Below are positions 3,617 to 56,721 of a stretch of 64,000 nucleotides of DNA, one piece after another (positions within the stretch are counted from its first letter, which is position 1; each line of letters opens with the position of its first letter). Position numbers and translations under genes: made by a program. Origin of the DNA: Leucoraja ocellata (lineage: Eukaryota); contig JAWMAR010000085.1 in the NCBI GenBank assembly GCA_036785375.1, positions 7,502,001 to 7,566,000 on the forward strand, in the 5' to 3' direction. A model generated the notes under the pieces. That model worked only from the letters and a program-made list of their open reading frames with translations, did no database searches and was not told the DNA's origin.

Positions 3617-3756
3617 GTATACAAAAATGCTGGAGAAACTCAGTGGGTGCAGCAGCATCAATGGAGCGAAGGAAATAGGCAACGTTTCGGGTTGAAACCC
3701 TTCTTCAGACTTTTGTGTACCTTCGAATTTCGAGCATCTGCAGTTCCTTCTTAAAC
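3617..3756. mobile_element. 140-bp Penelope-derived mini-element with hammerhead motif, partly inverted, 14-bp TSD
   Basis: AAAGTAAAGACCAG at 3603-3616 and 3757-3770. Minus-strand CTGAAGA-A-GGGTT-TC-AACCC-GAAA-CGTT within 3681-3710. Confidence 0.8.
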
Positions 3757-6902: not shown

Positions 6903-7799
6903 GTTAGTGGAGACTTGCTCAGAGATACCTGAGAACAAATGTGTAGGGACGAACTGCAGATGCTGGTTTACACCAAATATGGACACAAAACGCTGCAGTA
7001 ACTCTGCAGATCAGGCAGCATCTCTGGGGGAAAGGAATAGGTGACTTTTCGGGTTGACTCCTTTCTTTAGACTGAGTGTCAGGTGAGAGGGAAACTAGAG
7101 GTATGAAAAGGTACAAAGAACAAATTAATTGTGCTTGGGCAGCTTATAACCCAATGGTATGCATCTTGATTTCTCTCATTTCAAGTAACCCTTGCATTCC
7201 CTCTCTCTCCATCCTTCCCTCGACTAGTTGTCCTACCAGTTTCCACTGTCATCCTGCTTAGTTTCACTGTTTGTTTCACCTCCATCACCTTTTCCCACAG
7301 CCAACAATGGACCATTGTGGGCTCCACCTTTCTTGATCACCATTGCTGGCTTTGATTTGTTCTTTTCACACCTTTTATTCACTTGTTTTTTTGTACCTTT
7401 TCATACCTCTAGTTTCTCTCTCCCCTGACCCTGAAGATGGGCCTTGATCTGAAATGTCATCTATTCCTTTTCTCCAGAGATGCTGCCTGACCCGCTGAGT
7501 TACTCCAACAATTTATGTCTTATCTACCAAACAAGACTCCAGTGCTTCATTCACCCTGTGCGAAGATATATCAGCTGAAAAAGGGTCCTGACCTGAAACC
7601 ATCTGCCTATCAACTCCACCCCCCCCCCCCCCCCCCCCCCCCTGTCTATATCCACCTATCACTCCCTGCCTGAGGTCATCTGTTGCCAGTCCTGATCTGT
7701 CCTGGCTTTTTCTTCCTACCCCCCACCGCCCTTTTCTACAATCAGTTTGAAGAATATCCTGACTCAAAACGTCACCTATCCATGTTCTCCAGAGATAGA

Positions 7800-16900: not shown

Positions 16901-19081
16901 ATGGGTACATGGATAGGAAAGATTTAGAGGGATGTTGGCAAATGTGACCAGCTTAGATGGGGCATCTTGGCTAGCATGGACAAGTTGGGCTGAAGGGACT
17001 GTTTCCATACTGAAAAACAATGACTCTAAAAGAGTGCCTTTTCCTCCAACTGATGTGTATAAGTTTGTCTACTTGTAATACTGAGTCTTCATAAGTCCTT
17101 GCAAAACCATTATTGTGTGCAGTTCTGGTTGTTGCTTTACAGGAAGGATGTGGAGGCAAGGAGAAGATGCCGAGGAGGTTTACCTCCTGGATTGGATGGT
17201 TCAAACTATAAGGAGAGGATGGTCAAACTTAGATTGTTTTGTCTGAACTGTAGGAGGCTGAGGGGAGACCTGGTAGAAGTGTATAGAATTATGGAACGCG
17301 TACTGTAGATAGGGAAGACAGAACTTGTTTCCCAGGAAGGTAATGTCAAAGACGAGTTGGTGAGAGGACGGTTCATTTGCCTGATAACAGATGGGAAGAC
17401 ACTGTCCCTGAATCTGGAGGTGTGTGTTTACAAGCTTCTGCACCTCTTTCCTGATGGGAGCGGGGAGAAGAGGGAATGACAGGGGTGAGACACATCCTTG
17501 ATTATGCTGGTGGCCTTGCCGTGGAAGCATGAAGTCAATGGAACGGAAGTACATGGAGTCAATGGAAGGGAGGTTGCTTTTGCTTGATGGCCTGGGCTAT
17601 GAAACCTTTGGTTTTTGACACAATTATAGCAAGATGCAAAGTATTTTGTTTAATTAACAATTGTTTAATTATCTCACAATTTCTGAGCATGTTGGAAGAC
17701 TGCAAAAAAGGATTTTCTAGAAAGATGACAGGGTTATGAGAGGCTTGTGATCAATGAGCTCAATTTAAATGAGTCGGTGGAGTAAACATGGAGAAACATC
17801 AAGTGAAAGGGAATGGTACTAAATTGGCATCCACTGCCTGAATGAGCAGAGGAAGCATATTCAAAAGTAATATTTCAAAAGGGAATTAGATTAATATATA
17901 TAAAAAGGAAATAAAAGTCACAAGGTACAAGAGAAAAAGATACAAGATACAATTTATTTGTCATTAGGGTTAGGTTTAGGGTTACCCCTCAAAAAGTAGA
18001 GAAGCAAAATTATTTGGTTCATTTTATCAAAATGGGAGCCCTATTTAATTTTTGGATACAAAGAAATGCAGATGCTGGTTCACACAAAAAAATGACAACG
18101 TGCTGGAGTAACTCATTGGGCCAGGCAGCATCCCTGAAGAACTTGGACAGGTGATGGTTCGGGTCTGAAAAAGGGTCCCGAACTGAAACTTCACCTATCC
18201 ATGTTCTCCGGAGATGCTGCCTGACCCGCTGAGTTACTCCAGCACTTTGTGTCCTTTTGTGTATTAATTAGTATCTGCAGTTCTTTGTTTCTAAACTTTA
18301 CCTCTAACAAGCCGAATTACTAACCATAAACGTAGACACAATCAGTCTAAAGAAGGGTCTTCAGTCTGAAATGCCAACTGTACGTGTTCTCCAGAGATGC
18401 TGCCTGACTCACTGTGTTACTCCAGAACTTTGTGCCCATATTTAATCTATTCTGCTTTAAATCTTTTTCATACAGTATTAAAGGAATTATCTAATAAATA
18501 GCATTGATATCACATTGCAATGTAAAGTAATCACACTGACTTGTCCATATAAAGTTTAATTTAGTTTAGAGATACAGCATGGAAACAAGCCCTTTGGCCC
18601 ACCGAGTCACTGCCGACCATCGATTGCCCTACACTAGTTCTATCCTACACTCTAGAGGCAATTTATAGAAGCCAATTAACATTTAGGTTTGGGAGAGCTG
18701 ATAAGGAGGGGGTTTAAATGGTGCTATTTATTTCTAACACCCTCTATTGTACGATATTAGTTGATGGGAGGGAGTGTAGAGATTAAACCACCTGAGCTGG
18801 ATAGATCCCCGTACATTATACCACAAAATGGCAGCAAAAGACAGAGACAGGCCCGTCTCTGTTGAAACCTTCTTTATGGTTTTGTCGCCATCTGTTCTTC
18901 CTCCTCCCAGTAGCGTGGAGGGTAAGGGCTCGAGGGGGCAGCTGCAATTCTGACACAAGTTGCATTTTAATTGACAGCCCCCACCCCCCTGATTTCACCA
19001 CCTGAGCGTCTCGCAGGTCTGCTCCCCAGTCCCTCACCTGTTTGTTCCAATCTCACCCCCGTAGGCTTCATTCCCCCGTGA

Positions 19082-24151: not shown

Positions 24152-25075
24152 AGATAGACAAAAGTGCTGGAGAAACTCAGCGGGTGCGGCAGCATCTGTG
24201 GAGCGAAGGAATAGGCAACGTTTCGAGCCAAAACCCTTCTTCAGACTGATGTGGGGGGGGGGTGGGGGGGGGGGGTGGGAGGGGGGGGGGGGCAGGAAGA
24301 AGAAAGGAAGAGGTGGAACCAGTGGGCTGAGAAGGGGCGGAGAAAGTAAGGACTACATGAAATTGGAGAGGTCAATGTTCATACCGCTGTGGTGTAAACT
24401 ACCCAAGCGAAATATGTGCTGTTCCTCCAATTTACGGTGGTCCTGACTCTGGCCATGGAGGAGGCCGAGGACAGAAAGGTCAGATTTGGAATGGGAGGGG
24501 GAGTTGAAGTGCTGAGCCATCGGGAGATCAGGTTGGTTAATGCGGACCGAGCGGAGGTGATGGGCGAAGCGATCGCCAAGCCTACTCTTGGTCTCGCCGA
24601 TGTAGAGCAGCTGACACCTAGAGCAGCGGATGCAATAGATGAGGTTGAAGGAGGTGCAGGTGAACCTCTGCCGCACCTGGAAAGACTGCTTGGATCCTTG
24701 AATGGAGTCAAGGGGGGAGGTAAAGTGACAAGTGTAGCATTTCTTGCGGTTGCAAGGGAAAGTGCCCAGAGAGGGGGTGGTTCGGGTGGGAAGGGACGAA
24801 TTGATCAGGGAGTTACGGAGGGAGCAGTCTCTGTGGAAAGCAGATAGGGGAGGAGATGGGAAGATGTGGCCAGTGGTGGGATCCCGTTGGAGGTGTTGAA
24901 AATGTTAACCCACTGATTGGATGACAATGTAGGGTGGAAGGTGAGGACAAGGGGGACTCTGCTCTTGTTACGAGTGGGGGGGATGGGGAGTGAGACTAGA
25001 GTCACAGGGTATAGAATAGACCCTGGTGAGAGCCTCATCTATGGTAGAGGAGGGGAACCCCTGTTCCCTGAAGAA
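24152..25075 (-). mobile_element. Penelope-like element (Neptune-type): RT C-terminus, GIY-YIG endonuclease and downstream hammerhead motif
   Basis: ORF 24353-24676 reads NLIYCIRCSRCQLLYIGETKSRLGDRFAHH (GIY-YIG); RVPLVLTFHP lies upstream. Hammerhead-like motif at 24217-24247 on the same strand. Confidence 0.9.
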
Positions 25076-25486
25076 TTACCTTGTTCATTCCTCCTTCTCC
25101 CTGTTCCCATCTGGCAGAAGGTACAGAAGCTTGAAAGCGAGCACCATCAGACTCGGAGGTAGACAAAAATGCTGGAGAAACTCAACGGGTGAGGCAGCAT
25201 CAATGGAGCAAAGGAAATTTGGGAACGGCTTCTTCCCCTCTGTTATCAGGCTTCTGATCAGCCCTTCCATAAGCTAGGGTACTGTTCGGTTCACCTCTAC
25301 CTCATTGAAGACATTGGACTTTGTCTCTGGAACTGGTGCTGCTACAATGCTGAGAACTATATTCCGCACCATGTATCTTCCCCTTAGCTCGACCTGTTGT
25401 AGAAACAAGGATATGCAAAGGATGATTTGCAAAAAAAGACACAAAATGCTGGAGTAACTCAGGGGGTCAGGGACATCTCTGGAGAA

Positions 25487-25603
25487 GGTACATAAAAATG
25501 CTGGAGAAACTCAGCGGGTGCAGCAGCATCTATGGAGCGAAGGAAATAGGCAACGTTTCGGCCCGATTTTCGATTTTCCAGCATCTGCAGTTCCTTCTTA
25601 AAC
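25487..25603. mobile_element. Penelope-derived mini-element nested in an older relative, 14-bp TSD
   Basis: ACATCTCTGGAGAA at 25473-25486 and 25604-25617. Same termini and inversion as 3617-3756. Confidence 0.78.
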
Positions 25604-25874
25604 ACATCTCTGGAGAACATGGACAGGTGACCTTTTAGGTCAGGCCCCATCCTCAGATGGAAGAAGGGTCCCGACCAAAAACAAAAAGCTTTTCACTCTA
25701 CCTGGGTGCACATGACCATAATAATAAACTAAATTAAACTAAACACATACATTTTCTCCATAGATGCTGCCTGACCCACTGAGTTCCTCCAGCTCTTTGT
25801 GACTCTACCTATTTTACCTGGGTTTGACTTGATTATATTTATATATAGTATTATCTGATCTAATTAGATAGTAA

Positions 25875-27218: not shown

Positions 27219-30047
27219 ACTATGTGTGGAGTTTGCACGTTCCCCTATGACTGCGTTGGTTTCTTCCGGGTGCTTTGGTTTTCTCCCACATTCCAAAGAT
27301 TTGGAATGGTAGGTTAATTGGCCTCTGTAAATTGCCCATGTGTGTAGGGAGTGGATGAGAAAATGGGATAACATGGAAGGAGTGTGAATGGGTGATCGAT
27401 GGTTGGCGTGGATTCGTACCCGGGTCTCTGGCGCAGTGAGGCAGTGACTCCACCCGCTGCATCGCTGCGCCATGCTTGCCGACACTGGACTGCCACTTCT
27501 GCTTGGGACTGTGGAGGAGGAATGCGTGTTTCATGCGTGTGTATTGAATGAGGAACAGAAGGCTTGTGGGTCTCAAACCTTCTGTGTGGTTACCCTCAGG
27601 AATGAAGAACAATTTCAAGAAGTACTTGCAAAGTGTAAGGAGCTCTTTAAAGCAAATGTTCTTAACAGCATTTGGTACTCCATAGCCAGTTAGTCCACGC
27701 GCAAACTGTGGGAACAGCACCTCATATTCCGCTAGGGTTGCTCACAACCCAATGGTATGAACATCGAATTCTCCAATTTTAGGTAACTACTAACCTACAA
27801 CCCCCACTCCCACCCTTCCCTTCCCTTCCCCACCACCCCTCTCTTGTCCAACCATCTGTCTAACAAACCCATCCCGCTCACCTGTATCCACCTATCACTC
27901 CCTGCCTGAGGTCACCTGTTGCCGCCTCTGGTTTGTTCTAGTATTTTCTTGATTCCAGTTCCTGCCCTCCACCCCCCACCACCTCACAATCAGTCTGAAG
28001 AAGGATCCCGACCTGAAACATAACCTATCCACGTCCCCCAGAGATGCTGCCTGACCCGCTGAGTTACTCCAGCATTTTACGTCTAGTTTTAGTATAAACC
28101 AGCATCTGCAGTTCCTTTCTATTACATTTCATTTCATTCCACCTCTCACTCGTTGGGCTTTGTCCTGCCCCCTCCTCTCCTCCAGCTTACTCCACCCCCC
28201 TCCCACCACCACCACAATCAGTCTGAAGAAGGGTCCCATCCCAAAACGTTGTATTTCCGTCTTCTCCAGAGATACTGCTTGATCTGCTGAGTTACTCCAG
28301 CACTTTGTGTCTTTTTGTTGTAAAGCAGCATCTGCAGTTCCTTGTTTCTCCATGCTGTTGGCCTTCATTTTGCCCAAAGCTAGATCAGCCTTCCCATTGT
28401 TGTTCGGTGATAAGGTCTCATGGTGGTGTTGGTGCAGAGACTACCTTGCCTCCCACTAATTCCCTCCAACCTAGAGGACCCTTTCTCATGTGGATGGCTA
28501 TCTAGTTCATGGGTACAGCATGGAAACAGGCCCTTCAGCCCATTGAGTGCACGCCGACCATCCATCATCCATTCACACGGGTTCTATGTTATCCCACTTT
28601 CTCATCCACTCCCGACATACTGGGGGCAATTTACAGAGGGACGATTATTCTACAAACCCTCACGTCTATGGGATGTGGGAGGAAACTGGAGGAAACCCAC
28701 GCAATCACAGGGGGAACATGCAAATTACACACACACACAATGAAAGTGAGTGATCTTTTTATTCCTCTCTCTATGGAGGATTGAGCTCAATGTGGTGACG
28801 TAAGGGTAGGATGTCAAGGGAAGGGTAAAGGCAGGGTGTGGTGTCGGAATGACTGTGGGAGATTAGGCAAGGATTAATAGACTGTGTGACGAACAACTTC
28901 TCTCTGTCTCTTACGAAGCAAGAACACAAAGGAGGGTGTTTTCTGTATGGGGTTTACCTTGATAAATCTTGTAAGGACATGAAATATCTCTTGACGTCGC
29001 TCCTTCATACGATGATTCTTGCCCCAGTCGCCTCCTCTTTGACTCATAGTCATGGAGTCATACAGCATGGAAACAAGCCCTCTGGTCCAACTTGCCCACG
29101 GGAACAAAATGTCCCATCTACACTAGTCCCACATGCCTGTGTTTGGCCCATATCCCTCTAAACCTGTCCTATCCATGTACCTGTCTAAACGTTTCTTACA
29201 CGTTGCAAAGTCCCTGATATGGTGCCCCCGATAGATCTTCCACCCTCCCCCCTCAACTCGTGCGGAGAATCAGCGGTGACAGAGTCGCTGCCTCACAGCA
29301 CCGGATAGAACACATGTCTATCTTCATGTCACATAGGTTGATTGACATCTGTAATAGGCCAACATGTTTGTAGGTTAATTGGCCCTCTGTAAATTTCCCC
29401 TGGAGTGTAGGAAGTGAAAGAGAAAGTGGGATAACGTGGAACTAGTGTAAACGGGTGATCGATGGTCGGCATGGACTGGGCAGGCCGAAGGGCCTGTGGC
29501 CATGCATTCCAATCTCTCCACGTGCATTTGCTCTGCTCACTGGGGCAATGATGACCATTTGCTGAAAATCTGCCATCTCGATCCTGCACCATCTCTCAGT
29601 AGAAAGATACAAAAAGCTGGAGTAAATCAGCGGGACAGGCAGCCTCTCTGGAAAGAAGGAATGGGTGACTTTTCAGGTCAAGACCCTTCTTCAGATCGAT
29701 GTCAGGGAAGAGGGAGATACATAGATAGGGAAGTGCAAGGTGTGAAATCACGACAAAGGGGGTGGTGATCAAGTAAAATGTAGACCAGGTCATTGTTAGC
29801 TGGGAGAAGGTAACAACAAAGTAAACAGAGATAAAATGTAGTCGGAGACAGTCAGACTGGTCGGAGAACTGGGAAGGGGAGGGATGGAGAGGAAAGCAAG
29901 GGTCTCATTGTTTAGTTTATTATTGTCGTATGCACCGAGGTACAGTGAAAAGCTTTTAGTTATGTGCTATCCAGTCAGCTGAAAGACTATACATGGTTAC
30001 AATCAAGCCGTCCACACAGTACAGGTACAAGATAAAGCAAATAATGT

Positions 30048-30252
30048 GTAGGAAGGAACTACAGATGTTGTTTCAAACTGAAGATAGACACAAAAAGCTG
30101 GACTTACTCAGCTGGACAGGCAGCATCTCTGGAGAGAAGGAATGGGTGACGTTTTGAGACTGAAGAAGGGTCTCGACCGGAAACATCACCCATTCCTTCT
30201 CTACAGAGATGCTGCCTGTCCCGCTGAGTTACTCCAGCTTTTTGTGTCTATA
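30048..30252. mobile_element. Penelope-derived fold-back mini-element with hammerhead core in the loop, 9-bp TSD
   Basis: Inverted arms at 30084-30154 and 30181-30251; CTGAAGAAGGGTCTCGACCGGAAAC between them; AAATAATGT at 30039-30047 and 30253-30261. Confidence 0.8.
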
Positions 30253-35436: not shown

Positions 35437-36224
35437 TAAAGATCTTAGAGCAGGGGTGAGGGAGTGCGCGGCCCGGGGACAGGGAGTGTGGGGCCCGGGG
35501 CAGCGGGGAGAGGGGCATAGGAGGGGGGGCGGGGGGGAGACATTGTAGTGTGGGGGGCAGGCGAAGGAGTGCCGGGGGGCGGGGGGGGGGGGGAGAAAGT
35601 TGAGGGGTGGGATAAGGCCTAATGTGTGTGAAGTTACTGGGAGGTTTACAATGTTTCTTATTTAATGTCCCTTGTCTAGTCCGAAATAAAGTTCATCATT
35701 GGATCAGAAGAAATATAATTGTGTGTGTTATATGATTATATACATTTATATCACATTCATGTATGTGTGTTTATAAACATTTTATTCTTTAACAAGAATT
35801 AACAGAATTATGAACTAGCAAAATTATGAATCTAACCCTATATCACGCACAAAAACTTCCCCCGCAATGTCAATTACCCTGCGAGTCGGGTCGGGTCCGT
35901 TCCGGTTACTACAAAATCAACTCAAACACTGCTTGTGAGCCATTTAAAAAGAAATGATTTAAAAACATTAAAAAAGACAATTATCAGAGTCAAATTTTAT
36001 TCTTGACAAGAAGTATGAACTGACAGAATTATGAATCTAACCCTATATCACACACACACAAACTGTTGCCCCGCAACATTGGTTACACTGCGAGTCGGGT
36101 CGGGCCAGGTAGGCTCCGGTTACTAAAATGGGCGGGGAAAAGTGCCCAGGATCCCCTCCGTAGCGTACTACACGTCAGCCCATTTCGCAAGAGTGGCCTA
36201 TCTTGCTCTGCTCTAAGATCTTTG
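35437..36224. mobile_element. Non-autonomous DNA transposon (hAT- or P-like MITE)
   Basis: Perfect 16-bp inverted repeat AAAGATCTTAGAGCAG (35438-35453 / 36208-36223). 8-bp flanks GTACAACC / GTACAGCC. Internal duplication of about 110 bp. Confidence 0.72.
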
Positions 36225-36508
36225 GTACAGCCCACACACACACACACACACCCTCATCGAGGTGCACCTTGTTTAACTAGTCCCTGCATTAGCAGCACCA
36301 AGCCACTGCAGATTGACGACTGCCGATTTCTGCAAAAGAAATGGCAGAACAGTAAAACTGGGATGCAGAACTTAAACAACTTGTGGCTGCAATGTTTTTT
36401 TTTACATAGAACTGCTGCTCAAATTCGCGGTTAAAAGAGACTGCCAGTCATTTCTGAATCTTCTGTAACGACTGAGTACAACCCAGACGGTTGCCCGGAC
36501 TTACAGGG

Positions 36509-36578
36509 ATGGAGTTGCCTCGTTCGACTTCTTTGAAGATTGCAAAGTTTCTGATATTCTCTCTGATTCTCTCGTTTG
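36509..36578 (+). CDS. Signal-peptide exon of the CD101/IGSF3-like gene (not in ORF track)
   Basis: gggATGG start context. Reads MELPRSTSLKIAKFLIFSLILSF with donor TTTG|gtgagt in phase 1. It joins 49629 to give ...LILSFETCIA|QRKV, matching the signal cleavage context of IGSF3 (VVSA|QRQV) and CD101 (LSIG|QREV). Confidence 0.8.
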
Positions 36579-37786
36579 GTGAGTAGCCAGTTTATCGTTG
36601 TACCATGTTAGTCCTTGTGGACGGAGCACCTATGTCCCATGCTGGGAGATGTCACGCCTTGTTTTAACCTGTCAAGGTAATGATGGTTCTTAAAGCCGCA
36701 CCTTTGGTAGAACTGCCCCTGTCGACTGCTATAAACCAGCAACAAGGAACTAAAGTATTCTGTGCTAGTAATTATTAAACGTCTCTGAGAAACGCCAGCT
36801 TGCATTTGTATTTGCATTTGTATTCGAAATGTCACAAGTTATTTCTACAGTTTCAACAAAAAAAAGATTGAGATATTAATATCGGGCTAGTCACAAAGAG
36901 TCATAGAAACCGTCCCTTCGGTCCACCTTGTACATGCTGACCTAGTCGGTACACATTACGACTCTATGACTCGATTTGCCTGCATTTGGCCCATAGTCCT
37001 CTAAACCGTTCCTATCCAATTACTTGTCCAAATGTTTTTTTTAAATCACGAGATGAATGGATAGGGCGAATGCACAGTCTTTTACCCAGGGTGGGGGAAT
37101 CAAGAACCAGAGGACATATGTTTAAGGCGAGAGGGGAAAGATTTAAAAGGAGCCTGAAGAGCAACTTTTTGAGTCAGAGGGTGGTGGGTGTATGGAATGA
37201 GCTACCGAAGGAGGTAGTTAGTGTAGGTAACCTGAGACAGGTATTTAACATTTACATGTTGGAATTTACATTTACAACATTTAAAAAGACATTTGGACAG
37301 GTACATGGATAGTAATGTTTTAAAAGGATATGGACCAAACACAGGCAGGTGGTACTAGCATAGATAGGACATATTGGTCAGATGGGCTGAAGGGCCTGTT
37401 TCCACACTGTATGATACGACCCTAAGTCACAATTGTTTCTGCTTCAATAGCTTCCGCTGGCAGATTTAGCTTTTAGTTTAGAGATACAGCATGGAAACAG
37501 GCCCTTCAGCCCACTGAGTCTATGCTTACCATTGATCATCCATTCGCACTAGTTCTATGTTATCCCACTTTCTCATTAACTCCCTACACAATTTACAGAA
37601 GACAATTAACCTACAAACCTGCACGTCTTTGAGATGTGGGAGGAAACCGGAGCACCTGGAGGAATCCCATGTGGTCACAGGAAGAACGTGCAAACTCCAC
37701 ACACAGGCAGCATCTATTTGCCTGCCTTTGCCCCCATATCCCTCCAAACCTTGATTATTCAGTCAGAGGGTGGTGGTTGTATGGAA

Positions 37787-38791
37787 TGAGGAGGAGGAGC
37801 CATCTTGGGGAGTGTACGGAGGAGGAGCCATCTTGGAGAACGTCTGCTAACCAGCAGCCGTCCATTTAACTCACTTTTTGTCGGAGTTTTAGTAAGTCCT
37901 GTCCTTTGTCTGTTGGAGGATGGACTTTTTAATGTGAGGGGAAGGAGGTAATTATACTTCTAGGTCCCTACTTGGTCGGTGAGGCTGCTTTTTCTCCGGG
38001 CTGCCCCATCGACCCGTCCTCGTGGCCTACCAGCAGGCGTGGAGCGCCGTTTCCTGGCAGGGACCGCCCAGCACCATGGCTTCGGTGGCGGCACAGCGCT
38101 GGGGCGCTATCGCGGAGCGGGCGATGCCTTGCCTGGGTCGCCGCGCTGGATCGACATGCTGGAGCTCCGGTGAGCTGTGACCGCCGAGATCAACATCTCC
38201 GGGCTGCGGGTCTGCGGAGCGGGCGGTGCCGACTCTAACATCGGTAGCCTGGAAGCTCCAAACCGGTGCGGCCTTGTCGGCTTCGGAAGCTGCCGTCCTC
38301 AGTCAGGAAGCGGCCGTTCCAGGTGGCCCAGCCGCTGAGAGGACTCTCCCGACGCTGGGGCAACATCACCCGGTGAGAATGGCCAGGAACATCGGGCCTC
38401 CGTGGAGGCAATAGCGGTGGCCTCAATAGGCCTGACTTTGGGTGAACTGGGGATGGGGACTGGACATTGTGCCTTCCCCCACAGTCATAACCATTGTGGG
38501 GGGATGATTTTTTTTTTTCGTGTGTAAGTAAACATGTTAGTTTGTGTCCAAGATGGCTGTCGGAAGGGAGAGTGGACGCTGGCACGCTTTAGCTGCCGCT
38601 GCTCTCTCTTCACATTGTGTTTTTGATTTTTTGTCTTTGGATTGAATTCTGTTTTTAATTTGTGTTTTGTGATGTCTTTATTATTTATTTTATTACGATT
38701 ATTTGTTTTATTATTCTTGTTAATCTTTGTAAGGTGTCCTTGAGATTTTTGAAAGGCGCCCCCAAATAAAATGTATTATTATTATTATTAT
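37787..38791 (+). mobile_element. GC/CpG-rich composite non-autonomous retroelement ending in an L2-type tail
   Basis: 3' end AAGGTGTCCTTGAG...AAAGGCGCCCCCAAATAAAATG(TAT)n, as at 32020. 5' duplicated GGAGGAGGAGCCATCTTGG. No recognisable protein. Confidence 0.55.
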
Positions 38792-38879
38792 TCATATATC
38801 AATCCAAATGCCTTCCCTCCCACTTTATTCTCAAATTCAGTGAAGAGTGTTTTATTGTCCCAAACAGAATAATTAAATT

Positions 38880-39648
38880 CTTACTTGGAGGAGAGAGAGG
38901 GGGAGGGGGGGGAGCAGAGAGAGGGGGAGGAGAGGGAAAGAGGGGGAAAGAGGGGGAGAGAGAGGGTGTGCTGAGAGGGGAGGGGGAGATGTGGGGAGCA
39001 GGGAGGGGGAGGGAGGGGGAGGGAGGAGGAGTGGAGGGAAGGGAGGGGGAGGGGGAGGGGAGAGGAGAGGAGGGGGGGGGGGGAGAGGAGAGGGGGGAGA
39101 GGAAAGGGGGAGGGGAGAGGAAAGGGGGACGGAGAACCTAAAACACGTTTTAGAACCAAAAAAGACACATTCTGCAAGCATTGTAGAACCAAAAGAGACA
39201 CGTTTTGCAAATATTTTAGAACCAATAGACACTTTTTGCAAACATTTTAGAACCAATAGACGCATTCTGCAAGCGTTTTAGAACCACTAAGGACACTTAC
39301 ATTTGAGTAGACATTTGTTCAGTGTTATTCACAGCTCAGAGAAACGTGACCCTCTGCCTTCCTCCATCTCGAAGAGACTATGAGGCACACCACTTCCTGG
39401 TTTTATAGTCCCTCCCCCCCCCCCTGCCGCCAGCAGGGGCAGCAGAGAGAATGGGGAATTTTGTAAAAACATTAATATCTCTGTCATTTTTCATTGACGG
39501 GAAAAATCCTCGGCACATGTACGGCGGAGGGGGGCTCTGAGCAAGGTGGCCAAAAATGACGGCCGTAGGTGGCGACGTTCTCTCGGAAATCGCAGCACAG
39601 ATGGCCAAAACCAGTCAAGAACAGTCTTTTAATAATATATATATATAG
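38880..39648 (-). mobile_element. Probable non-autonomous Helitron 5' portion with internal 30-32-nt tandem repeat and purine/pyrimidine tract
   Basis: Minus strand begins CTATATATATATATTATTAAAAGACTGTTCTTG and shares ATTTTTGG(A)CCACCTT(A/G)CTCA with the element at 55078-55705. Tandem repeat at 39143-39286. Confidence 0.5.
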
Positions 39649-39659
39649 TAGTTCAAAGC

Positions 39660-39753
39660 TCAGAATATATAGTATAATAAACAAGGAAAAGTTCAGTACT
39701 ATATATATATATAGTACTGAACTTTTCCTTGTTTATTATACTATATATTCTGA
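39660..39753. repeat. Perfect 94-bp spacerless palindrome
   Basis: TCAGAATATATAGT...GTACT(AT)6AGTAC...ACTATATATTCTGA, centred between 39706 and 39707. Confidence 0.92.
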
Positions 39754-39820
39754 ACTTTGTTTATTATATGTGTGTGTGTGCGTTTTTCCGTACACAATAC
39801 ACACACACGCACACATATGT

Positions 39821-39853
39821 GTCTGAAGAAGGGTTTCGGCCCGAAACGTTGCC
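39821..39853 (+). ncRNA. Minimal type I hammerhead ribozyme motif (Penelope-associated); best-preserved copy
   Basis: GT-CTGAAGA-A-GGGT-TTCG-GCCC-GAAA-C-GTT-GC: catalytic core, stem II with UUCG loop, palindromic ACGT stem III. Confidence 0.7.
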
Positions 39854-41095
39854 TATTTCCTTCACTTCATAGATGCTGCTGCACCCGCTGAGTTTCTCCA
39901 GCATTTTTGTGTACCACACATATATATGTATACACACACATAAAAACATGCAACAATAGTGCAAAATTAAAACCAATGTAACCAAGTCCTTATAGTTCAG
40001 AGCATATTTGGAGGTTGTAGTATTCAATAGCCTGATGGTTGTTGTGAAGAAGCTGGTACTGATCCTGGATGTTACAGTTTTCAGGCTCCTGTACTTTCTT
40101 CCTGATGAGAGGAGTGAGATGAGAGCGTAGCCAGGGTGGTGTGGTCCCTGATGACGCTGGCTGTCTATTTAAGGCAGCAACTCCCGTAGTTCCGTTCAGT
40201 GGTGGGGAGGTCAGTACTAGTTGAATGTCACAAAAAAATGCAGAAATTGTCACCACAAAATGTGACTGTGTCTGTACAGTAGCTGCTCTGAATAGTCCAA
40301 CCAAACGCCATCATTTTGACATTTTGAAGAAGGGTCTCAAACTGAAACGTCACCTATTCCTTTTCTCCAGAGATGCTGTCTGACCCGCTGAGTTACTCCA
40401 GGTTTTTGTGTCTATCTGCAGTCATTTCGACATATTTGTTATCTACAATCGTGGCATCTATATATTCAACAGACGTTGTTCAGTAATTGCTTGTGGGTTA
40501 GGTCCCTCTGAACTTTCAGTGAACTTCACTTATTAAGAAGTACTTTAGAAATACAAATAGATTGAATTATTTGGCCCCAGTGTAGAATAATATAGCTCAG
40601 GAACAGGTCCAACATGTCTATGCCGGCAAAAATATACCCCATCAAAGTTAGTTCCATTTGTCTGCATTTGACCCATATCCTTCAAAAATTTTCTTATCCA
40701 TGTATTTGTCCAAATGTCTTTTAAATGTTGTTATTGTACCTGCCTCAACTCCCTTCTCTGGCAGCTCGTTCCATAAACCCACCACCCTCTGTGTGAAAAA
40801 GTTGCCCCTCAGGTTCCTATTAAATCTTGCCTCTCTTACCTTAACCCTCATTCCACTGGTTCTTGATTCCCCTGCTTTGGGTAAAAGACCCTATCTATTC
40901 CACTCATGATTTTGTACACCTCCATAAGATCACCCCTCTCCCTCCCGCGCTCGCTCCTGGGAATAAAGCTCTAGCCTGCCCAACCTCTCCCTGTAGTACC
41001 CAGAGAAAACCCATGTGGTCACAGGGAGAACGTACAGACAGCACCTGCGGTCAGGATTGTACCCGGCGTTGTGAGGCAGCAGCTCTACCGCTGCA

Positions 41096-43003
41096 GATTC
41101 AGATTCAATTTAATTGTCATTGTCAGTGTACAGTACAGAGACAACTAAATACATTTAGCATCTCCCTTGAAGAGCGACATAGCAAACGATTTGAATAAAT
41201 AATAATAAGTGTCCGGGGGGGGGGGGGGGGGGGTGGTGATTGGCAGTCACCGAGGTACGTTGTTGAGTAGAGTGACAGCCGCTGGAAAGAAGCTGTTCCT
41301 CGACCTGCTGGTTCGGCAACGGAGAGACCTGTAGCGCCTCCCGGATGGTAGGAGGGTAAACAGTCCATGGTTGGGGTGAGAGCAGTCCTTGGCGATGCTG
41401 AGCGCCCTCCGCAGACAGCGCTTGCTTTGGACAGACTCAATGGAGGGGAGCGAGGAACCGGTGATGCGTTGGGCAATTTTCACCACCCTCTGCAATGCCT
41501 TCCGGTCGGAGACAGAGCAGTTGCCATACCATACTGTGATGCAGTTGGTAAGGATGCTCTCGATGGTGCAGCGGTAGAAGTTCACCAGGATCTGAGGAGA
41601 CAGATGGACCTTCTTCAGTCTCCTCAGGAAGAAGAGACGCTGATGAGCCTTCTTGATCAGAGTAGAGGTATTGTGGGTCCAAGAGAGGTCATCGGAGATG
41701 TTGACTCCCAGGAACCTGAAGCTAGAAACACGTTCCACCTCCGTCCCGTTAATGTGGATGGGGCTGTGCGTGCCGCCTCTGGACTTCCTGAAGTCTACAA
41801 TGAGCTCCTTGGTCTTCTTGGAGTTAAGGGCCAGGTTGTTGTCAGTGCACCATGCTGCTAAGTGCTGGACCTCCTCCATGTAGGCCAGCTCATCGTTGTT
41901 GCTGATGAGGCCAATCACCGTTGTATCATCTGCATACTTGATGATGGTGTTAGTACCATTTACAGGTGTGCAGTCATAGGTGAAGAGGGAGTAGAGGAGG
42001 GGGCTCAGCACACAGCCCTGAGGAACGCCGGTGTTCAGAGTGAGGGTTGAAGAGGTGTGCTTGTCTAACCTCACAGACTGGGGTCTGTTGGTTAGAAAGT
42101 CCAGTATCCAGTTGCAGAGGGAGGGGTCGATGCCCAGGTTACCGAGTTTGGTGATCAGTTTTGATGGAATAATGGTGTTGAATGCTGAGCTGTAATCGAT
42201 GAACAGCATTCTTACATAAGTGTCTCTGTTGTCGAGGTGGGAGAGGGCGGAGTGAAGTGCCGTTGAGATGGCATCCTCCGTACTCCTGTTCTTGCGGTAG
42301 GCAAACTGATAGGGATCCAGTGTGGGGGGTAGGCAGCTTTTGAGGTGTGCCAGGACCAGCCTCTCGAAGCACTTGGTGATGATGGGGGTAAGTGCAACTG
42401 GGCGGAAGTCGTTGAGGCTTGCCGCAGTGGAGTGTTTTGGCACTGGCACGATGGAGGTGGCTTTAAGGCAAGTGGGGACCACTGTTTGGGCAAGTGACAG
42501 GTTGAAGATGTCAGTCCAGACGTCTGTCAGCTGCGCAGCACAGGCCCTGAGCACGCGCCCGGGGATGCCATCAGGGCCAGCAGCCTTACGTGCATTAGTC
42601 CTACTCAGTGCCACGTACACGTCGTAGGGGGTGAGTGTGAGGGGTTGGTGATCGGCAGGTAGCACAGCCTTGATGGCTGTCTCTAGATTGTCCCTGTCGA
42701 AGCGGCCATAGAAGTGATTAAGCTCCTCAAGGAAGGAGGCGTCGCTGGATGTGGGGGTGATGTTGGAGGGTCTGTAGTCCGTGATGGCCTGGATGCCTTG
42801 CCACATGCGTCGGGGGTCGGAGTTGTTGTTGAAGTGCTCCTCAATCCTGAGCTTATGGCAGTGCTTGGCCTTCCTGATGCCCCTCTTCAGGTTAGCCCTG
42901 GATGAACTGTAGGCTCGAGCATCGCCTGACCTGAAAGCGGTGTCCCGTGCTTTCAGCAGTAGATCCCGTGCTTTCAGCAGTAGTCCCGTGCTTTCAGCAG
43001 TAG
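41096..43003 (-). mobile_element. Young Rex/Babar LINE, 5'-truncated, with uninterrupted RT ORF, inserted in a SINE
   Basis: ORF 41247-43025 contains [33 protein letters not shown] and YADD. (CAGATT)n tail on the + strand; TGCA duplicated at 41092 and 43006. The annotated ATG lies in flanking DNA. Confidence 0.93.
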
Positions 43004-43554
43004 AATGCACAACTGTGTTGCTCATGTTGAGAGGAAATGGTTCAAGTCTCAGTCTGAGGCCTGGCTGGAGATTGATGGTGTGACAGATGTCTGCGACATC
43101 ACCTCATGCCTGTAGCTTCAATGAGGTTAAAAAGTGGTCAACAGATTTAATCATGCACATCATTTGCATCAGTGAAACCAAGTGTACGGTAACATCCTCT
43201 ATCTGTTGGTGCAATTGTTCCGATAACCTATATGTTCAATGTGTAGAGAAACAAAGAACTGCAGATGTGGTTAAAACATAAAAACGTTACTTTCAACTAT
43301 AGAGATACAGCTCGGAAACAGGCCCTTCAGCCACCGAGTGATGAATGATCCCCATACACTAGCACTACCCTACACACTAGTGACAATTTACAATTTTTAC
43401 CAAAGATAATTAACCTACAAAGCTGCATGTCTTTGTCGTGTGAGAGGAAACCCGGAGCACCTGGAGAAAACCCACACTGTCATGGGGAGAATGTATAAAC
43501 TCCGTACAGACAGCACCCATAATCAGGATCAAGCCTAGGTCTTAGGCGCTGGAA

Positions 43555-43849
43555 AAGCCCTGTCCCACTGTACGGGTTCATTCAAGAGCTCTCCCAAGTT
43601 TTAAAAAAATCAAACTCGTGGAAGCACGTAGCGGGTACGTCAGAGCTCAGGGACATCTCTTAGAGGCTCATAACGCTAACAGCAGGTACTCGGGAAACGC
43701 GGTAAGCTCGGGAAGACTCATGAAGATTTTTCAACATGTTGAAAAATGTCCACGAGAGCCCCGAGTACCTACGAGCGGCCATTACCGTAAATCTCCGAGT
43801 TCGAATCAGGGAGAACTCTTGAATGAACTCGTACAGTGAGACAGGGCTT
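43555..43849. mobile_element. PIF/Harbinger-like MITE inserted in a SINE
   Basis: About 40-bp imperfect TIRs (AAGCCCTGTCCCACTGTACG... / ...CGTACAGTGAGACAGGGCTT). It interrupts the SINE sequence GGCGCTGTAAGGCAGC at TAA (left flank now GAA). Confidence 0.75.
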
Positions 43850-44565
43850 TAAGGCAGCACCTCTACCGCTGTGCCACCGTGCTGCCCTAGTTTGCGAGAT
43901 GTGTTGTGGAGACTGCAGCCCTGATATGGAGGATGCCTTGTGTTGGTGCGTAAACAGCCCAGCTGGTACATTCGTGGTTGAAAAAGGATTCTGTGGATCA
44001 GGATGAGAGAATTCATTACGTTGTTGTGTATAGCAGGCTGCTGGAACTGGAATTTCTTGCTTCAAGAGCGAACTGACATGTGAATTAAACTCAGAAGAGG
44101 GAGTGGCAGTCAAGAAATCTGACAAAGATTACCTTTAGATAAAGGCACAAAATGCTGGAGTAACGCAACGGATCAGGCAGAATCTCCGGAGAACATGGGT
44201 ATATGATGTTTCAGGTCGGGACCCTTCTTCACATTCTGATCAGTCTGAAGTTCCTTGTTTTTAAAGATTACCTTAACCAAGTTAACTTAAACACAGCAGC
44301 ATAGCTGATGGAGCTGCTGCCTCACAATGCTTGAGACCCGGGTTCGATCCTGACCTCGGGTGCTGTCTATGTGTGAAGTTTGCACGTTCTCACTGCGACT
44401 GCCTGGGTTTCCTCCAGGTGCACTGGGTTCCTCCCACATCCCAAAGATGTGCGGGTTTGTAGGTTAATTGGCCCTCTGTAAATCACCCCTGGTGTGTAGG
44501 GAGTGGATGAGAAAGCGGGATAAAATTGAACTTGTGTGAACGTGTGATTTATGGTCGGCATGTAC

Positions 44566-46165
44566 ATAGAAACAAAGAAACATAGAAACATAGAAAATAG
44601 GTGCACGAGTAGGCCCTGCACCGCCACTTCGAGCCTGCACCGCTATTCAATATGATCATCCAACTCGGTATCCTGTACCTGCCTTCTCTCCATACCCCCT
44701 GATCCCTTTAGCCACAAGGGCCTCTTAACTCCCTCTTAAATATAGCCAATGAACTGGCCTCAACTACCTTCTGTGGCAGAGAATTCCAGAGATTCACCAC
44801 TCTCTGTGTGAAAAATGGTTTTCTCATCTCGGTCCTAAAAGATTACCCCCTTATCCTTAAACTGTGACCCCTTGTTCTGGACTTCCCCAACATCGGCAAC
44901 AATCTTCCTGCATCTAGCCTGTCCAACCCCTTAAGAATTTTGTAAGTTTCTATAAGATCCCCCCCTCAATCTTCTAAATTCTAGTGAGTACAAGCCGAGT
45001 CTATCCAGTCTTTCTTCGTATGAAAGTCCTGACATCCCAGGAATCAGTCTGGTGAACCTTCTCTGTACTCCCTCTATGGCAAAAATGTCTTTCCTCAGAT
45101 TAGGAGACCAAAACTGTACGCAATACTCCAGGTGCGGTCTCACCAAGACCCGGTACAACTGCAGTAGAACCTCCCTGCTCCTATACTCAAATCCTTTTGC
45201 TATGAATGCTGACATACCATTCGCCTTCTTCACTACCTGCTGCACCTGCATGCCTACTTTCAATGACTGGTGTACCATGACACCCAGGTCTCGTTGCATC
45301 TCCCCTTTTCCTAATCGGCTACCATTCAGATAATAGTCTAATTTCCTGTTTTTGTCACCAAAGTGGATAACCTCACATTTATCCACATTATACTGCATCT
45401 GCCATGCATTTGCCCACTCACCCAGCCTGTCCAAGTCACCTTGCAGCCTCCTAGCATCCTCCTCACAGCTAACACTGCCACCCAGCTTCGTGTCATCCGC
45501 AAACTTGGAGATGTTGCATTCAATTCCCTCGTCCAAATCATTAACATATATTGTAAATAGCTGGGGTCCCAGCACTGAGCCTTGCGGTACCCCACTAGTC
45601 ACTGCCTGCGATTCTGAAAAGGACCCGTTTACTCCTACTCTTTGCTTCCTGTCTGCCAGCCAGTTCTCTATCCATATCAATACTGAACCCCCAATACTGT
45701 GTGCTTTAAGTTTGTATACTAATCTCTTATGTGGGACCTTGTCGAAAGCCTTCTGAAAGTCCAGATATAACACATCCACTGGTTCTCCCTTATCCACTCT
45801 ACTAGTTACATCCTCGAAAAATTCTATGAGATTTGTCAGACATGATTTACCTTTCATAAATCCATGCTGACTTTGTCCAATGATTTCACCACTTTCCAAA
45901 TGTGCTGCTATCCCATCTTTAATAACTGACTCTAGCAGTTTCCCCACTACCGATGTTAGACTAACTGGTCTGTAATTCCCCGTTTTCTCTCTCCCTCCAT
46001 TTTTAAAAAGTGGTGTTACATTAGCTTCCCTCCAATCCTCAGGAACTACTCCAGAATCTAAAGAGTTTTGAAAAATTATCACTAATGCATCCACTATTTC
46101 TGGGGCTACTTCCTTAAGTACTCTGGGATGCAGCCTATCTGGCCCTGGGGATTTATCGGCCTTTA
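44566..46165 (-). mobile_element. CR1 LINE, 5'-truncated
   Basis: ORF 44931-46175 contains KSPGPD, NYRPVSLTS, LDFQKAFDKV, GVPQGSVLGP and FADD. (TTTCTATG)n tail. Confidence 0.93.
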
Positions 46166-47979
46166 CTCGGTACAATATATATTAGGAGAAGATGATAGAA
46201 AGTTTTATCTTAACTTTTGGGAATAGATTGTTTAGTTTCAAGTTTAGTTTTTAGATATTTAAAATATAACACCAGAATGTCAAATGGAGACACAAGGAAT
46301 TGCAGAAGCTGGAATTGTGAATGAAACACAAAGTTAGTTCCCAGAGATCCTTTAGCAGTTTGTGTTTTTACCAAAATATCACAATTTGTTTAGACTCTAG
46401 ATTTTAGAGATACAGCACGGGAAACAGGCCCTACGGCCCACCGACTCAGAGGTTGTCGGAGGTTTTGGGGAGAAGGCAGGAGAATGGGATTAGGAGGAGA
46501 GATATAGATCAGCCATGATTGAATTGGTGGAGTAGACTTGATGGGCAGAATGTAATTCTATTTCTTGTGACCTTATGACTCGACGTTGACCAGCGATCAC
46601 CCTGTGCACTAGCACTATCTTGCACACTAGGGACAATTTACAACTTACAGAAACCAATTAACCTACAAACCTGCACCTCTTTGGAGGAGGGGTGGGAACC
46701 AGAGCACCCGAAGAAAACCCATGTGGTCATGGGGAGAAGGTACAAACTCCGTACAGACAGCACCCATTGTCAGGATTGAACATGATCTCTACCGCTGCGT
46801 CACTGTGCCGAACATTTATTTGCTGCTTGTTTTATTTACCTATGGACCCGATCTTTCCCTCATGGAAACAGGGTCTCAAGATTAATATTAAAGACACTTG
46901 AAGGCATCAAATACATCTTACTGATAACCTTTACAAAGTTAAATTGAAGTTTGAACTCTTTAGACTTAAATCGAGGTCTCTCTGAGCTTGAGGTAAGGTG
47001 TCGAGTTTCCTCTATTATTCTGCTGATATCGGCAGGGTTGAGGACACAAAAGTCTTGCAGCTGAGGTTTAGCACTTGATCCAAATTCGGAAGCCACTTCC
47101 TGTATTAGATTATTTAGTACATTACAATGAATAAAGATAATGTTAAATGAAGCAAGCTTGCATCCATCTCTGCAGCCATCCAATTGCTTGTGAGAGTCAG
47201 AGACATGCAGCATGGAGCAGGCCCTTCAGCCCAACCTGCCCATGCCGACCAATATGACCCATCTAAGCTTGCCCCACATGCCTGCATTTGGCCCATATCT
47301 CTCTAAACCTGCAATGTACATACCTAAATATTTTTAAAATGCTAAAAATTGTAAATTGCCCCTAGTGTGTAGGATAATGCTCGTGTATCGGGTGATCGCT
47401 GGTTGGCGCGGACTCCGTGTAGGGCCGAAGAGCCTGTTTCCGCACTGTATCTCTAAACAAAACTAAAGCTGCATCACAATTTCCTGACTCTTATACTCAA
47501 TGCCTCGACCGCTGAAGGCGAACATACCATATGCCTTCTTTACCAACATCTTTCAATACCCGAGACCAATCCCAAGGTGTTCCTTCACCTAGCATTTAAT
47601 TAACATAGAAAACATTCAGGAGTGTCACAGGGCATCAGTTTAACTGTGTTGCTGCTTCTCAAATGTGTCTGATGAAGATTGAAGAGAATAATTTAAATAA
47701 ACTGCTTGATATTTAACAAGAACACAGCATTAGATACCCATTAGATGGTCACAGTCTGTATCCCACTGGAAATCAAAGTTATTAGGTACATTGTCATTAT
47801 GAGCAGTTTGACTTAATTACCTACCTTTCTCCCGGTTGGCTACTGGGACGTTTGTTGAAGCTCGCTATTCACTTCTGGGCTTTCCAGAGACTCTACTTAA
47901 CATACCAGTAACTATTACAAAATAGTGGTCTTAAATATTATCTTCATAAGAAACAAGATCAGGTTTAGTTCATGTAGAC

Positions 47980-48858
47980 ATACAAATCCACTGACTCCCA
48001 CAACTATCTCGACTACACTTCCTCACACCCTGCTTCTGCAAAGACTCTATCCCCTACTCCCACTAGCCATATTTTCCCTGCTCCACCCCTTTCCGCCTTC
48101 CGCAGAGACTGTTCCCTCCGCAGTTCCCTGGTTAACTCATCCTTTCCCACCCAAACCACCCCCTACCCAGGTACCTTCCCCAGCACCGCAGAAGATGCAA
48201 CACCTGTCGCTATACCTCCTCCCTCGACTCTGTCCAGGGACCCCGACAGTCCTTTCAGGTTCGGCAGAGGTTCACTTGCACCTCCTCCAACCTCATTTAC
48301 TGTGTCGGTTGTTCAAGATGTGGGCTCTTATACATCGGTGAAACCAAACGCAGACTGGGCGATTGTTTCGCGGAACACCTTCGCTCAGCCCACGTAAACC
48401 AACCTGATCTCCCGGTTGCCGGACACTTAATTCTCCTTCCCATTCCTGCACTTTCTGTCCTCTGTCCCCTCCATTGTCAGTGAGGCTAAATGCAAATTGG
48501 AGGAACATCATCTTATATTTCGCTTGGGCAGCTTACAGCCCTGTGGTATGAATATTGATTTCTCTCACTTCACGTAGCCCGGCATTCCCTCTCTCTCGAT
48601 CCCTCCCCCACCCAAGTCGCACTAGCTTCTCATTTTCACCCTACAAACAGCTTACAAGGGTCTGTTTCCTTTATCATCGTTACTTTTTTGCATATCTTTC
48701 ATTCATTCTTCTTTATCTCTCTACATCATCTATATATCTTGTTTCCCTTATCCCTAACCAGCCTGAAGAAGGGTCTCGACCTGAAACATCACCCATTCCT
48801 TATCTCCAGAGATGCTGCCTGTCCCGCTGAGTTACTTCAGCTTATTGTGTCTATCTTA
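47980..48858 (+). mobile_element. Penelope-like element remnant (RT end, GIY-YIG, hammerhead motif)
   Basis: KSTDSHNYLDYTSSHP near 47983; FTCTSSNLIYCVGCSRCGLLYIGETKRRL near 48270; CTGAAGAAGGGTCTCGACCTGAAAC at 48763. Confidence 0.85.
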
Positions 48859-49628
48859 GTTCATGTAGAAGTCTCTTCCCCGGCCAACAATGGGCTCCAC
48901 CCTTCCTTGGCCATCTGCTACTGGCCCTGATTTGTTCTGGCCTTTTCCTACCTTCAGTTCCTCCCCCTTTATTTTCAGTCTTATGAAGGGTCTTGACCCG
49001 AAACATCACCCAACCTTTTTCTCCAGAGATGCTACCTGACCCATTGAGTTACTCCAGCATTTTGTGTATTTGAAGGTTTATCTTGGATTTGCTCAACAAT
49101 ACCACAGCACATGAGGCAAATATTCAGTTGTTAAATAAGCCTTTTTTTTAATTGATTCCACATTTTTTTTGGGATTGTTTTAGAATTCATTGTGTAACAG
49201 TGGCGCAGCAGTAGATCTGCTACCTCACAACACTAGAGATCCAGGTTCGATCCTGACCTTGGGTGTTGTCTATGTGTGGAGTTTACATGTTCTCCCTGAG
49301 ACCGCATGGGTTTCCTCGGGTTGGTCCGGTTTCCTTCCACATCCTGAAGACGTGCGAGTTTGTAGGTTAATTGGCCGTCTGTAAATTGCCCCTAGTGTGC
49401 AGAATAGAACTAGTGCACGGGTGATCACTGGTCGCTGCGGACTCCGTGGGCCCAAGGGCCTGTTTCCACGCTGTACCTCTAAACTAAACTAATTGTATCT
49501 ATATGTATTTTGGATAAGTTGTTGGCTTGCTTTTTTAGAATAAAGTTTTGCTTGTGTTGGAATGATTTTGTGAGGGGATCGAGAGAGCATGCAGCTGTAG
49601 TTCCTCACCTGTTTATTTCTGGTTACAG

Positions 49629-55814: not shown

Positions 55815-56721
55815 CAGGTGTTTAAATATGGTATTGATCCAAGTCCACAAATGAAAGTAGCAACAAAAATAGATGGAGTGGTAAAGAAGGCATATTGAGT
55901 ATAAGAGTTAGGAGGTCATGATGCTGCGTTATAAGATCAAAAGCCCTTTAACTAGCTTCACAGTTCACATCTATGTATCACTTTTGTGTTCACGCCTGTT
56001 TTTATCCCTAGCCTTTGTCTGACAATCTTGCTATCAGGGAACCCCATTGCCTATGGTAATCTGTTGTCGGCCATGATTTGTTCTGCTCCCTCTTCTCCCT
56101 TCCGGTTGTACAGACTTGGATTGTGAACACTAATTGCAGCAACCAGAAGCAATTGCAATTTAGCTTAATTTAGAGATGCAGCATGGAAACAGGCCCTTCG
56201 GCTCACCGAATCCACGCCGACCATCAATCAGCCGTTCATGCCAGTTCTATGTTGTCCCACTTTCTCATCCACTCCCTAAACACTTGGGGCAATTTACAGA
56301 GGGCGAATTAACCTACAAACCTTGGAATGTAGTAGAAAACCAGAGTACCTGGAGAAAACCCACGCGGTCACAGGGAGAACGTGCAAACTCCACACACAAA
56401 CAGCACCCGAGGTTGGGATCAAACTTGGATCTCTGACACTGTAGAGGCATTCCAATCACTCAGTTACTTTAATCATTATGTGTTTTTTTCCCTTGCCGAC
56501 AGTTGACTTTCTCCTTTGGATGGCAACCAGTGAACTGCTGGTAATCTGAATAATTATAGTAGTGACAGGAGATGATAAGGGATAATATAGCATTGGACAG
56601 GTTAATTATGGTGGAGGCGAGTTTAAATGTAGCTTTTCTGTTGAACTTGGAGACAATGACCTTTAATAAAACACAGTGTTATATTAATGGAGCGTGAATC
56701 ACTGCTATTAAGCCTCAGCAA

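Follow-up and report, generated by a model that had tools for sequence, protein, structure and literature searches.

Likely pseudo-LTR hammerheads of Neptune-clade Penelope-like elements are dispersed through a skate locus, and the copy in intron 1 of an immunoglobulin-domain gene is likely an inert relic

A repeat of about 95 nt whose 5' end is a hammerhead motif is scattered over a 64-kb stretch of the skate Leucoraja ocellata genome (the window, to which all coordinates refer). We consider it likely (probability about 0.86) that the repeat is the pseudo-LTR (pLTR) hammerhead of Neptune-clade Penelope-like retroelements (PLEs), and that the copy at 39823, lodged in an intron of an immunoglobulin (Ig)-domain gene, is an inert insertion relic. 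The focal copy carries the motif CUGAAGA-A-(4-bp stem II)-GAAA-CG-UH at 39823-39850. An nhmmer profile made from 15 copies finds 39 matches in the window, together covering 3036 of 64,000 bases (about 0.6 copies per kb), with no strand bias (20 on the plus and 19 on the minus strand). A first, sequence-only reading of the window had noted the motif at 17 sites, and all 17 lie inside these matches; the one given as 48988 begins at 48978-48980.

The motif is also picked up by the published descriptor for minimal hammerheads: eight matches in the window when the stem I rule is dropped, four when 2 bp are required and none at 3 bp. Our control for chance was a set of 20 block-shuffled windows, 19 of which yielded no match to the descriptor without the stem I rule and one of which yielded a single match, and this excess shows that the motif is not fortuitous. 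The Rfam search that the sequence-only reading had proposed finds no hammerhead: the hammerhead models give no match in the window at the gathering score, and none of the 18 Rfam matches at E up to 10 is a hammerhead. Such a miss would be expected, since the motif is without a stem III hairpin. A scan of viral contigs yielded no match to the motif, and the endonuclease scan of viral contigs gave 36 candidates, none of them confirmed. Searching the literature outside subscription journals, Repbase and Dfam, we found no printed account of the motif in sharks or skates.

Core, stem II, palindrome and stem I are all intact in three of the 39 copies (3711-, 24247- and 39821+), each with a stem I of 2 bp, and the 11 core positions are intact in nine. 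The focal copy is identical to the other two intact copies at 82-83 of 89 columns. The G10.1-C11.1 closing pair is G-C, or G-U by decay, in 20 of the 24 aligned copies. The palindromic CG at 15.2-16.2, with no loop 3, is present in the focal copy and in subfamily A, and is gone from most old copies, largely through CpG decay. Between A9 and G10.1 sits an extra nucleotide, A in 21 of the 23 copies spanning the core and U in the other two. De la Pena and Flores are said to have described an extra A in 2001. The sequence-only reading had likened this A to that of the CChMVd viroid hammerhead; the A is there, but the special link to the viroid falls away, since PLE hammerheads as a rule have such an A (PMC4209133).

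What ties the repeat to PLEs is its neighbourhood. Five 3' remnants of an endonuclease gene lie in the window, four of them followed in sense by a repeat copy 112, 188, 212 or 245 nt after the stop codon; the fifth, 56712-56912, is cut off just short of the hammerhead repeat. Copies in sense 3' of GIY-YIG reading frames had been pointed out before, although two were counted rather than four. The remnant on the minus strand at 24353 scores E 5.8e-4 against Pfam GIY-YIG, at 20.5 bits below the cut-off of 22.6, and shares 54-66% identity with eight shark and ray proteins (tblastn E 4e-76), several of which carry reverse transcriptase (RT) sequence upstream of the endonuclease. Within 24353-24904 it encodes a C-X4-C-X2-C linker, and a CX2-5CxxC linker between RT and endonuclease marks the Neptune and Nematis clades (PMC8557442). 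Neptune is the likely clade going by linker motif and best matches rather than an RT tree, the linker being shared with Nematis. As four of them lie 3' of endonuclease remnants whose zinc-finger linker points to Neptune, the repeat copies are likely truncated or solo pLTRs. The best reading of the repeat is as the pLTR end of Neptune-type elements, of which truncated, inverted and solo pieces remain. On the class of the motif the sequence-only reading was right: a minimal type I hammerhead of Penelope type, in which stem III is a palindrome without a loop and A9 is followed by an additional A.

Table 1. Features of the repeat family and of the host gene, in window coordinates
Feature	Position	Strand	Remarks
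Focal solo pLTR fragment, subfamily A	39821..39914	+	nhmmer 39821-39912, E 3.3e-24
Focal minimal type I hammerhead	39821..39852	+	all criteria intact; fails the descriptor at 3-bp stem I, passes at 2 bp
Focal stem I, 2 bp	39821-39822 with 39851-39852	+	
Focal core box CUGAAGA	39823-39829	+	
Focal extra A	39830	+	
Focal stem II, 4 bp	39831-39834 with 39839-39842	+	UUCG loop
Focal GAAA	39843-39846	+	
Focal palindromic CG	39847-39848	+	
Focal GUU site	cut predicted after 39850	+	
Intact copy, subfamily A	3619..3711	-	inverted tail before it; antisense to the upstream Ig gene
Intact copy, subfamily A	24155..24247	-	112 nt 3' of endonuclease stop; is the 3' pLTR of a 5'-truncated element
PLE ORF remnant	24353..25075	-	C-X4-C-X2-C linker and GIY-YIG endonuclease; Pfam, tblastn
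Second broken endonuclease remnant, 3' region and decayed copy 48761+	47948..48853	+	G16.2 to A in the copy; sense, intron 1
Nearest sense neighbour, subfamily B	40324..40414	+	C3 to U and stem II mismatch; palindrome and GUC kept, site after 40351
Sense copy in intron 1	48978..49069	+	G5 to U and G16.2 to A
Endonuclease 3' end and decayed copy 27993+	27694..28085	+	212 nt between them; further copy at 28221
Inverted truncated copy (7072-), endonuclease 3' end (7133-7219) and sense copy 7430+	6982..7520		adjoining; is a typical PLE insertion
Head-to-head inverted copy pair	18095..18253		
Second head-to-head pair	30085-30250		
Endonuclease stop to copy	7186-7431; 27783-27995; 48575-48763; 56911 (remnant cut off before a copy)	+	
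Endonuclease stop to copy	24356-24244	-	
Host gene coding exon 1	36509..36578	+	signal peptide
Host gene intron 1	36579-49628	+	
Host gene exon 2	from 49629	+	

The window contains no full-length element (RT plus two pLTRs), solely 5'-truncated remnants, and so the parent element itself is not seen. Seven head-to-head pairings occur among the repeat copies; a 3' tail is found on 9 of the 39 and an inverted 5' tail on 4 of the 39, against a background of 0.01. These features match the insertion structures of PLEs, whose ends are described as bearing inverted truncated copies and tails (PMC8557442). On either side of the focal copy, at 39810 and 39915, the CA/TA-rich DNA repeats 9 bp directly; this may be a target-site duplication and fits a recent insertion, although such a composition makes duplications ambiguous. 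At 25437-25803 a subfamily A copy with an inverted tail sits inside an older copy beside an inverted partner, a nest that suggests insertion into or beside existing copies.

Two further sequence patterns bear on the stretch between endonuclease and repeat. In all five endonuclease remnants a GT overlaps the last codon and the stop (GTAA or GTAG), and in 9 of the 39 copies a pyrimidine tract plus CAG directly precedes the hammerhead box. Together these look like the borders of a putative pLTR intron that would run to helix I; in the Penelope element of Drosophila virilis, too, the intron has its 3' end at the 5' end of helix I (PMC4209133). By inspection, splicing of the putative intron would not lengthen stem I. 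Sense repeat copies could also act as cryptic splice acceptors. We note besides that two annotated ray proteins bearing host gene names include the same endonuclease (P0004 and P0007), and that a carpet-shark gene model (P0005) reads through the 3' region; its C-terminal residues, by back-translation only, fit the same hammerhead with N7 = U, so that the motif would follow the endonuclease in another shark too.

Independent support comes from metagenome contigs, in which we confirmed 506 relatives of the endonuclease and took the best 80 as an external set. The same motif occurs in sense 90-297 nt after the endonuclease match at 26 of these best 80 loci, or at 21 of the 62 among them that have at least 300 nt downstream. 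In the stretch downstream of the endonuclease no antisense motif was found at any of the 80 loci, and 20 shuffles gave no match; the six antisense matches elsewhere in these loci are inverted copies, each situated upstream of the endonuclease. Stem I has 3 or 5 bp in 21 of the 26 external motifs, and the commonest of the 26 is the Acropora digitifera Neptune hammerhead drawn in Fig. S3 of PMC4209133. When 21 of the 26 were aligned with the three intact window copies, the core was invariant, N7 varied and 93.6% of stem cells paired. The stems covary across families in these endonuclease-linked relatives: two-sided changes fill 21 cells, a figure reached by none of 500 shuffles and compared with at most 4 in slid controls, with the caveat that related sequences can exceed shuffles and that the scan had in part chosen its matches by stem II. 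Stem I played no part in that choice and covaries at all three of its pairs.

Within the window the picture is one of decay. The claim that stem II covaries among the window copies was not borne out: over the 24 of 39 copies aligned, its four pairs vary on one side only, and the covariation score is reached by 438 of 500 shuffles. Including a fifth pair yields two two-sided cells out of 120, at a CpG site. Changes in stem II are mostly G-C to G-U, and the variants quoted as covarying consist of G-C to G-U or U-A to U-G wobbles plus CpG decay; pairing is kept in 75 of 92 cells, compared with 81±3 in a neutral simulation. Excess conservation of the core over the rest of the repeat, the other mark of function named by the sequence-only reading, is likewise absent: relative to subfamily majorities, 14 of 230 non-CpG core cells are changed (6.1%) as against 67 of 879 in the downstream block (7.6%; p = 0.48), and this in a set of 23 of the 39 copies, those covering the core, a selection that favours a conserved core. 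CpG columns are changed at 67 of 223 cells (30%), against 6-8% elsewhere.

The window copies thus decay neutrally after insertion, CpG sites fastest, which is why only the youngest subfamily still looks intact. This subfamily, which includes all three intact copies, lies 4.4% from its majority (n = 3), whereas the other two lie at 13-14%. Between subfamilies 16 columns differ, and the 11 core columns are not among them; the sparing of the core hints at constraint on the source elements and is not significant (p = 0.10). Within the motif, subfamilies A and B differ at four positions, and every one of these differences keeps the fold (one in the loop, U-A to U-G twice, GUC to GUU).

In most respects the skate motif matches the minimal hammerheads described in metazoan PLE pLTRs by Cervera and De la Pena (2014; PMC4209133). 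It shares with them the CUGANGA box, the extra nucleotide between A9 and G10.1, the G10.1-C11.1 pair, GAAA, the loopless CG palindrome and the UH site, as well as a location 3' of the endonuclease, mostly as solo copies, with opposite-strand pairs 100-700 bp apart. The same paper reports solo copies by the thousands in fish, coelacanth and frog; its Table S1 and Fig. S3 include no cartilaginous fish. The difference lies in stem I, for which the published descriptor demands 3-7 bp (Fig. S7 of PMC4209133), and none of the 39 skate copies complies. With a skate stem I of only 2 bp (G-C plus U-A or U-G, the first pair of subfamily A being U-G), the published search pattern misses the family. Extending stem I past the mismatch in the focal copy was considered and discarded, the gain being just 0.2 kcal/mol. 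PLE hammerheads with a 2-bp helix I, formed by two G-C pairs, are on record from Culex, three Drosophila species and Oikopleura (Fig. S3 of PMC4209133), and the skate family is therefore grouped with those variants and kept apart from the class that satisfies the descriptor strictly. The skate motif may be even weaker than the published 2-bp forms, or dead in its source elements.

Among individual elements, the A. digitifera Neptune has the clade mark in its endonuclease linker, a 4-bp stem II, a 4-nt loop and the CG palindrome in common with the skate family; it has a 3-bp stem I, C at N7 and a stable stem II, whereas the skate motif has 2 bp, A at N7 and a predicted misfold (PMC4209133). The Penelope of D. 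virilis also has a 2-bp helix I, but it belongs to the Penelope/Poseidon clade, builds that helix from two G-C pairs and has a longer, bulged helix II and an extended helix III (PMC4209133). The Poseidon element PAc of Anolis likewise carries a vertebrate pLTR hammerhead, and its preference for AT-rich targets fits the TA/CA-rich focal site; it is of another clade, and in assays its activity proved protein-assisted and was dispensable for insertion in vitro (PMC11167929).

That the hammerhead was already dead in the skate source elements, with its 2-bp stem I and U-A or U-G first pair, and served during amplification as a vestige or a protein-binding site, is possible though somewhat doubtful. 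This would refine our preferred explanation and is compatible with it. The failure of all 39 copies to satisfy the 3-bp rule and the U-G first pair of family A speak for it, as do two observations on other PLEs: mutating the Anolis hammerhead left insertion in vitro unaffected, making the hammerhead dispensable there (PMC11167929), and Naiads spread without hammerheads (PMC8557442). It has to be set against the existence of the published 2-bp variants, one of which, the D. virilis hammerhead in extended form, self-cleaved weakly, mostly at high Mg2+ (PMC4209133), and against the fold-preserving nature of all four A/B differences.

It is improbable that the repeat is instead a SINE-like or retrozyme-like element in its own right, short, non-autonomous and with its own transcription unit. 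Many copies do start within a few bases of the hammerhead box, no endonuclease remnant was detected upstream of 35 of the 39, and pLTR-derived retrozymes have been reported from vertebrates, including one chondrichthyan (bioRxiv 10.64898/2026.07.22.740005). Such non-LTR retrozymes share with the skate repeat a type I hammerhead, a pLTR origin and dispersed monomers (bioRxiv 10.64898/2026.07.22.740005; PMC7229834), but the definition of a retrozyme requires units in tandem, every one with its hammerhead intact, and the window holds no tandem array or neighbouring pair of two intact units. Moreover, many copies extend upstream into pyrimidine-rich 3' sequence that they share with the endonuclease-linked copies, or into inverted partners, as 5' truncation predicts.

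For the parent PLE, the literature suggests the following course. Tandem copies would be transcribed, and two hammerheads would pair through the ACGU palindrome to form stem III; each core would then cut the UH site of its partner, probably at a slow rate and assisted by a protein that the element encodes. Many 5'-truncated, inverted and solo pLTR pieces would be left behind by reverse transcription and endonuclease-primed insertion; once inserted, the copies decay neutrally, at CpG sites fastest. Low activity confined to dimers, along with the extra nucleotide after A9 and the palindrome, has been reported for PLE hammerheads (PMC4209133), and dimer cleavage was also described by Luense et al. 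2017 (via PMC6765202).

The focal copy lies in an Ig-domain gene on the plus strand. When exons 1 and 2 are joined, the N-terminus of a relative of 1028 aa is recovered, and the joined reading matches P0023 (99% over the exon used as query) and P0024 at the N-terminus. The join fixes the boundaries of intron 1 and puts the focal copy inside it in sense orientation, as the sequence-only reading had it, along with the predicted cut after 39850. The name CD101-like given there is plausible, but the database relatives carry the name IGSF3-like; 2 of 30 matches are named IGSF2 or IGSF2-like. The best named relative of the host gene is from Rhinoraja (90%), and the best relatives of the endonuclease are from sharks and rays. 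Part of 36400-41200 is present in 20 of 24 sequencing runs among those listed, with no RNA run among the listed ones that contain it, which has no bearing on expression. Intron 1 holds five repeat copies, four of them in sense, so we see no sign of purging; the other three sense copies (40324, 48761 and 48978) each carry a damaging change.

Several other features of this region are recorded here for completeness. A gene upstream at 454-6907 (+), with three Ig-domain exons and one V-set match, is probably PTGFRN, going by its position beside a CD101-like gene. Two related copies of an approximately 100-nt sequence stand about 200 nt apart at 35840-36110, upstream of host exon 1. About 70 nt upstream of the focal copy is a perfect palindrome (approximately 39660-39753, arms of about 47 bp, a TA run at its centre), which attracts spurious sub-cut-off matches to miRNA families; fold-back repair, an insertion by-product or an assembly artefact could each account for it. 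Open RT frames on the minus strand at 41247-43103, 44931-46181 and 57995-59290 (618, 416 and 431 aa; Pfam RVT_1) belong to other non-LTR retrotransposons, and the latter two look like near-identical recent copies.

Could the focal copy cut its host transcript? Folding models give its stem II a probability of 0.00 in context, as against at least 0.8 in 16 of 22 external motifs, because the core is predicted to pair with a downstream pyrimidine tract; the value rises to 0.19 when the RNA ends just past the cut site. The idea that the core box and the pyrimidine linker downstream of it form a conserved inhibitory hairpin was entertained and rejected: in 18 copies the pairing did not exceed that with shuffled downstream sequence, 4 to 30 of 30 shuffles scoring as high. 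The free energy of a double hammerhead formed by 39823 and 40324 is predicted to be positive (+2.6 and +6.2 kcal/mol in the folding models). External dimers are also disfavoured, by a median of 17 kcal/mol above the best fold, and the models ignore tertiary contacts and protein help, so these values do no more than lower the odds of cleavage. On folding models and decay statistics the 39823 copy is likely inactive, and cleavage of the pre-mRNA by it is, as modelled, weakly supported at best.

We therefore regard cleavage of the host pre-mRNA by the 39823 copy at a biologically meaningful rate, whether it dimerizes with a neighbouring sense copy or with a partner in trans, as very unlikely. In its favour, the 39823 copy is in sense in the intron and has lost nothing of its core, stem II, palindrome or UH site, copy 40324 keeps both palindrome and GUC site, and PLE hammerheads cleave as dimers, at a low rate (PMC4209133), and with PLE protein (PMC11167929). 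In a cis dimer the only intact site would be the GUC of 40324, 500 nt downstream, faced by the 39823 core, and the cut would be expected after 40351, not 39850. Set against this are the stem II and dimer predictions, the neutral decay of the family, the full spliced proteins encoded by the host gene's relatives, and the behaviour of the Anolis hammerhead, which cut only with the element's protein and at whose site no RNA-seq reads ended in the study of Frangieh et al. (2024; PMC11167929). Least credible is the bolder proposal that the skate Neptune hammerhead, with its 2-bp stem I, works only as a protein-assisted or split dimer, that the 39823 core cuts at 40351 in cis, and that dense pLTR debris attenuates host pre-mRNAs whenever element protein is made. 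Ultraconserved intronic hammerheads of amniotes are conserved single loci. The focal copy has in common with them its place in an intron (PMC6765202), but it is one of 39 decaying repeats in 64 kb.

The inert-relic reading of the focal copy has a corollary: the finding would bear on gene regulation only if intronic copies were proved to cut host pre-mRNA, and the evidence points against that. For the biology of the elements, the family puts skates among the animals in whose genomes minimal hammerheads of Penelope type are widely scattered. Counts made with the published pattern may run too low in cartilaginous fish, stem I being only 2 bp. The family is, finally, a natural test of whether the transposition of PLEs requires their hammerheads or whether these are only passengers.
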